A stretch of 64,000 nucleotides of DNA, taken from the NCBI RefSeq assembly GCF_048403405.1, contig NZ_CP183129.1; one strand, 5' to 3'. The DNA is from Escherichia coli. GTDB lineage: Bacteria; Pseudomonadota; Gammaproteobacteria; Enterobacterales; Enterobacteriaceae. Below, in pieces: positions 7,761 to 8,124 of the stretch (positions are counted from its first letter, which is position 1; each line of letters starts with the position of its first letter). The position numbers and the translations under genes were made by a program. The notes beneath the pieces are model-generated. The model had not been told where the DNA came from, made no database searches, and saw nothing but the letters and a program-made list of their open reading frames with translations.

Positions 7761-7767
7761 ACACCAC

Positions 7768-7804
7768 CAGTGGCTGGCCTGGAGAAATCGCCAGGCCAGC
7801 CTGG
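7768..7804. terminator. GC-rich hairpin just downstream of dcp (possibly bidirectional; no clear U-tract)
   Basis: Near-perfect inverted repeat GCTGGCCTGG-N8-CCAGGCCAGC at 7773-7800, immediately after the dcp stop. Confidence 0.5.
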
Positions 7805-7900
7805 TTAGAGTAGTAATTGCAGCAGCTGGGCGAGGGCAAACCTCACCGCTAATGCTAATACCGTTTCGCAGTCGCCAGCAAAATTACTTTTTTTGTATAC
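7805..7900 (-). pseudogene. ydeJ: Possible 3' remnant of a CinA/PncC-like gene (ydeJ); most of the gene appears to be absent
   Basis: Minus-strand frame reads ...KKSNFAGDCETVLALAVRFALAQLLQLLL* ending at 7805, with an in-frame stop about 30 codons upstream; the dcp-ydeI gap is only 364 bp, too short for the roughly 170-aa YdeJ I recall at this position in K-12. Confidence 0.3.
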
Positions 7901-8124
7901 CCTTCCGTTATAATAATTTTCAAATTTATAAATCTGATTGTTCTGAAATATGTTTAAGACTCTTTAATCTTCTTCTTACTTTAGTGAGTAAAACTCTCTG
8001 AATATTTGACAGCTAGTTGCCTGATTTTAAATGCCTTATAACAATTGGCAGTATTCTTATTTGTCAATTATAAAAATAGCAACCAGACTTAATAAGTCAA
8101 ACCAAACGCAATTAAGGAGTCAGT

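Follow-up and report, generated by a model that had tools for sequence, protein, structure and literature searches.

The gene ydeJ of Escherichia coli K-12 (b1537; UniProt P31131) encodes a CinA/PncC paralog. The intact K-12 protein consists of a single CinA/PncC domain (Pfam PF02464, E = 9e-48, profile positions 3-155) and belongs to the same CinA/PncC family (TIGR00199) as PncC/YgaD, the active NMN deamidase of E. coli, but scores below the PncC equivalog cutoff (145.6 vs 212 bits). YdeJ has been reported to be without NMN-deamidase activity, with several catalytic residues altered or absent (PMC3855486). Salmonella also has ydeJ, and its product was renamed RdsA there; the DNA of a deletion mutant is more negatively supercoiled, and the ydeJ/rdsA promoter is itself supercoiling-sensitive (PMC7387798). 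By database search, YdeJ homologues are widespread in Enterobacteriaceae.

The protein also carries a second name. K-12 YdeJ passes the NCBIfam model NF002972 ("2-oxo-tetronate isomerase") with 329 bits against a cutoff of 201, and CinA is its sole Pfam domain. The characterised E. coli 2-oxo-tetronate isomerase (EC 5.3.1.35) is OtnI (b2739/YgbM), and the literature retrieved on this enzyme gives the activity to OtnI/b2739 and nowhere mentions YdeJ or CinA. Judged by domain content and these papers, the isomerase name appears to have no traceable support on a CinA-domain YdeJ, whether in the K-12-type locus (L002, 2005-2523) or in RefSeq.

The region analysed here lies in a 64-kb stretch of E. 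coli DNA (the window), in which the gene order is ydfH(-), ydfG(-), dcp(+), ydeI(+), dgcZ(+) and mgtT/mgtS(-). From 5800 to 10100, the window does not differ at any base from strain TUM14771 (NZ_CP128875.1; locus L001). In K-12-type genomes, a 519-nt ydeJ is encoded on the opposite strand from its two neighbours, tail to tail with dcp and head to head with ydeI, and O157:H7 has the same arrangement. The order ydeI-ydeJ-dcp, which a preliminary description of the window had given for K-12, was thus correct, and alignment with the K-12 region showed that K-12-type genomes do not have the short dcp-ydeI interval seen in the window. That interval almost certainly holds a dead ydeJ remnant left by a single old 475-bp deletion, which is a common polymorphism in E. 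coli. The structure of this allele, the polarity of the change, the shared junction and the frequency are demonstrated below.

The left boundary of the interval is dcp (peptidyl-dipeptidase Dcp; 5715..7760, plus strand), as located by the PGAP annotation of TUM14771 and an ORF call, and convergent with the former ydeJ. The right boundary is an intact ydeI (YdeI family OB-fold stress protein; 8125..8517, plus strand; Pfam BOF PF04076, NCBIfam NF007471), the product of which is 100% identical to K-12 YdeI at the amino acid level. Between the dcp stop codon (TAA, 7758-7760) and the first base of ydeI (8125) lie 364 bp (7761-8124), the length given in the preliminary description. The absence of any ORF, also claimed there, holds for real genes; four short start-to-stop ORFs (28-51 aa) do touch the interval, none of them in the YdeJ frame and none supported.

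A 3' remnant of ydeJ lies at 7805..7884 on the minus strand, at the same place and on the same strand as the K-12 gene, and retains 80 of the 519 nt of the coding sequence (the stop codon, 25 codons and 2 nt). Its frame, with the stop at 7805-7807, translates to NFAGDCETVLALAVRFALAQLLQLLL followed by the stop. This stub was matched to residues 147-172 of K-12 YdeJ with 25 of 26 amino acids identical, including the junction codon (BLASTP, E = 5e-15). When the full 172-aa YdeJ was compared with the 64-kb window by TBLASTN, the sole meaningful match was to 7885..7808 (E = 2e-10; next best E = 3.6). The likeness to the C-terminus of a CinA/PncC-type protein that had been noticed earlier is therefore a likeness to YdeJ, a PF02464 protein, and only the length had been misjudged, at about 30 residues in place of 26 (25 native residues plus the junction codon).

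The stub frame has no start codon, and no ATG, GTG or TTG yields a product of at least 25 aa (ORF list and translation); upstream of the stub, the frame stays open for 26 more codons, into former intergenic DNA. The remnant lies where ydeJ is expected, between dcp and ydeI and convergent with dcp, and is homologous to part of a syntenic gene that is intact in close relatives, with its N-terminus and start gone. A functional member of the YdeJ family (NF002972; PF02464) has a full-length CinA/PncC domain (~155 positions), of which the last 26 residues alone are present here. With ~85% of the CinA domain lost, together with the start codon and ribosome-binding region, the stub cannot be a functional YdeJ.

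Alignment to the K-12-type locus showed that exactly 475 bp (L002 2085-2559) are missing between positions 7884 and 7885, which bears out the earlier suggestion that most of ydeJ had been lost. The missing DNA comprises 439 nt of the ydeJ coding sequence (codons 1-146 and one base of codon 147) and 36 nt upstream; these 36 nt adjoin the GTG start, so that both the start and the ribosome-binding region fall within the deleted segment. No counterpart of the 475 bases was found anywhere else in the 64-kb window. The junction reads GCCAGCAAAAT on its left side and TACTTTTTTTG on its right side. The breakpoints are seamless and share no more than 1 nt of microhomology; their neighbourhoods have no word in common longer than 5 nt, and that one is out of register. 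Neither an IS remnant nor direct repeats of at least 6-8 nt were found at both breakpoints, as would be expected of an IS- or repeat-mediated deletion, and the event was probably a simple illegitimate deletion without repeats or IS.

Pseudogenes at this position are already annotated by RefSeq/PGAP in TUM14771 (QVN10_RS03680) and UTI89 (IIE08_RS24565); these represent the same allele, and their coordinates agree when counted from dcp. PGAP places an "incomplete; missing N-terminus" pseudogene at 7805-7885 in TUM14771 and in further genomes, for which the product name varies by version (older, "hypothetical protein"; current, "2-oxo-tetronate isomerase"). A literature search found no published account of the deletion, the multi-term query being swamped by unrelated papers. 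The ydeJ deletion is an already known, annotated pseudogene allele and an ordinary gene-loss polymorphism.

A further allele is found in phylogroup B2. UTI89 and ST131 share the ydeJ junction and the linked haplotype with the window up to position 7924. A further 504 bp, corresponding to window 7925-8428, are deleted in these strains, with 2 nt of microhomology, and are intact in the window. This deletion removes the rest of the intergenic region and approximately the first 101 codons of ydeI, and leaves a 90-nt ydeI 3' fragment. Its junction lies between positions 2125 and 2126 of the UTI89 locus (L003) and was also seen in ST131 (L008). Two of the seven carriers compared in detail below, AF10 and 09A19CPO009, have a UTI89-like flank haplotype with ydeI still intact, and are the expected intermediate state before the double loss.

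In order to estimate how common these alleles are, complete E. coli genomes were searched, and the locus was matched in 5,418 of 5,426. The 475-bp segment was present anywhere in the genome in 3,618 of the 5,426, leaving ~1,800 (33%) without it, and a segment covering the 5' half of ydeI and its upstream DNA (7930-8425) was present in 4,371. By subtraction of these megablast segment tallies, which is not a per-genome typing, ~700 genomes would share the state of the window (an intact ydeI but no ydeJ) and ~1,050 would have lost both genes. A direct count with a 70-nt junction query gave full-length matches in 151 genomes only; this query undercounts, since its T-rich right half was probably masked and B2 alleles offer no 28-nt exact seed on the left, and the subtraction of segment counts was therefore used. 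The window haplotype is 99.0% identical to a strain named ST38, the one pointer to its phylogroup, as the Clermont markers lie beyond the window.

The search was also extended beyond the species. An exact scan of GTDB species representatives with a junction 30-mer gave no matches, and a junction 20-mer gave two matches in the same representatives, both in unrelated MAGs and at about the number expected by chance. No other species representative thus carries the junction, within the reach of exact matching, which may miss diverged copies.

The DNA to the right of the junction was retained (7885..8124; 240 bp; K-12 equivalent L002 2560-2798, by alignment). It comprises the upstream regions of both genes, that of ydeJ now being orphaned. 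Within its first ~65 bp (7885-7950), an orphaned, AT-rich, non-coding patch, ~12 positions (~18%) differ from every sampled intact allele, against a background of ~3%, and 8 fixed linked differences fall within 7886-7926. To the left of the junction there is one fixed site only (7853). Comparison with the outgroup placed ~7 of the patch changes on the branch of the deletion haplotype and ~4-5 on that of K-12/O157. An origin of the patch as "filler" from a complex rearrangement was considered and rejected, as it is colinear with K-12 and the outgroup and has changes on both branches. Farther out, flanking polymorphisms are shuffled among carriers and non-carriers. From these alignments, the patch appears to be the central part of two old haplotypes, inseparable from the indel by recombination. 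The left/right asymmetry of fixed sites around the junction is not fully explained by two such haplotypes.

At the other end of the interval, a GC-rich hairpin (7766..7805; core stem 7772-7782 / 7791-7801) lies between the convergent dcp and ydeJ stops. Its folding energy is -28.8 kcal/mol on the plus strand and -30.2 kcal/mol on the minus strand (z-scores of -4.2 and -5.0), and 0 of 200 shuffles were as stable. The hairpin is present in the K-12, UTI89 and outgroup alignments and kept in all alleles; it is probably the shared bidirectional terminator of the dcp/ydeJ pair, as predicted from its position and stability. Two haplotypes of its loop and right arm (7784-7803) were observed: GGAGAAATCGCCAGG in the window, from which K-12 and O157 differ at 1-2 loop positions, and GGATTTATCGCCAGA in AF10, 09A19CPO009, UTI89 and ST131. 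These haplotypes do not track the deletion state, which indicates recombination within 100 bp of the junction. An Rfam search of 7600-8300 (E <= 1) returned an isrO match on the hairpin, which was rejected at 15.7 bits against a gathering score of 42.

Several explanations of the short interval and its distribution were weighed. An assembly or sequencing artefact is given no credence, because 2.9 kb of the window recur without a single difference in six independent complete genomes and with 99% identity or more in ~137, and the ~1,800 genomes counted above are complete assemblies without the segment. A different polarity, in which the short interval came first and the K-12/O157 lineages gained ydeJ by insertion, would account for the bare presence/absence pattern within E. 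coli and for nothing more, since an insertion cannot produce the in-frame ydeJ 3' end found at the syntenic spot in the window. Intact ydeJ is moreover found in a divergent Escherichia lineage labelled E. coli (GCA_020783085.1; YdeJ 86% and Dcp 93% identical), in an assembly encoding E. fergusonii YdeJ, and in many Enterobacteriaceae including Salmonella. In both inspected Escherichia outgroups the gene encodes 172 aa and stands in the same dgcZ-ydeI-ydeJ-dcp-ydfG synteny, so the short allele is derived, and the chance of an insertion is negligible. Once the change is taken as a loss, the same deletion might have recurred independently at a mutational hotspot, as carriers span divergent flank haplotypes and the distant flanks do not group all of them. 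No repeat or microhomology is available to direct an identical breakpoint again, however, and all seven carriers examined base by base have the same junction, with flanks that differ by up to ~3%; these carriers also share 8 fixed SNPs within 40 bp, which are absent in the sampled intact alleles and would not recur. Recurrence is accordingly considered very unlikely. The identical junction in seven carriers and the tightly linked SNP patch point to a single origin, and since the carriers do not form one clade away from the junction, recombination has moved the allele or its flanks. Read from these sequences, the history would be one old deletion event that has since been moved about by recombination.

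The remnant might also still be active, in that the old ydeJ upstream region could drive a ~250-300 nt transcript through the stub to the hairpin, or a small protein could be encoded. None of the K-12 sigma-70-like sites directed toward ydeJ falls within the deleted segment, and the window retains two of them on the minus strand (8100 to 8073 and 8051 to 8024), with a strong hairpin 3' of the stub. These promoter-like sites are consensus matches only; promoter and terminator consensus scans gave match numbers no higher than in shuffled sequence, and were for that reason not used as evidence of function. No Rfam family matches 7600-8300 (the best hit being the isrO match above), the YdeJ frame is without a start codon, divergence within the locus is highest beside the junction, and B2 strains lost most of this stretch without replacement. 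Residual activity is therefore improbable, and the stub is, on the best reading of the sequence, probably an inert remnant. It would be both silent and neutral.

Under the single-deletion reading, one illegitimate deletion in an ancestor of the lineage would have taken out 475 bp and joined the last 80 nt of ydeJ to former intergenic DNA, with no functional product. The convergent dcp/ydeJ hairpin, the ydeI upstream region and ydeI itself were left untouched. In B2 strains, a second, nested deletion of 504 bp later destroyed ydeI as well.

Proteins of the neighbourhood were aligned with those of the outgroup loci (L017 and L020). Against the close outgroup, identities were 86% for YdeJ, 93.2% for Dcp, 97.6% for DgcZ and 97.7% for YdeI, which makes YdeJ the fastest-evolving protein of the neighbourhood in this comparison. 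Against the E. fergusonii-type locus, the values were 62% for DgcZ, 66% for YdeJ, 81% for Dcp and 87% for YdeI. Several other truncated forms of ydeJ are present in databases. The fast divergence of YdeJ and these truncated forms would fit a weakly constrained, dispensable gene.

Downstream of ydeI, two observations were made on dgcZ and the DNA that follows it. At the dgcZ 3' end (9660-9683), the K-12 stop codon TAA is TCA in the window, and DgcZ is 7 residues longer (…NVINRV-SAPFNIH); dgcZ measures 912 nt here and 891 nt in K-12 and UTI89, per PGAP. A strong match to the Hfq-binding sRNA STnc560 (9674-9887, plus strand; Rfam 281.9 bits against a gathering score of 55) begins inside the final codons of the lengthened dgcZ; the small-protein ORFs mgtS/mgtT (9777-9976, minus strand) lie antisense to it.

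On its own, the ydeJ deletion matters little, and RefSeq annotates the stub in many hundreds of genomes. It does advise caution with the PGAP name "2-oxo-tetronate isomerase" for a CinA-domain protein. Loss of ydeJ might be non-neutral, given that Salmonella YdeJ (RdsA) lowers negative supercoiling and that its promoter senses supercoiling. The old deletion allele, if fixed in B2 and in this (probably D-type) lineage and followed by loss of the neighbouring stress gene ydeI in B2, could then mark a lineage-specific shift in supercoiling homeostasis or in the envelope-stress response in the ExPEC-rich part of the species, and the divergent 65 bp could represent a long-maintained two-allele polymorphism and not drift alone; this possibility is regarded as doubtful. 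The three ordered states of the locus (intact; loss of ydeJ; loss of both ydeJ and ydeI) make it a clean marker of lineage, and about one third of E. coli is a natural YdeJ/RdsA knockout that is usable for testing the proposed role in supercoiling.
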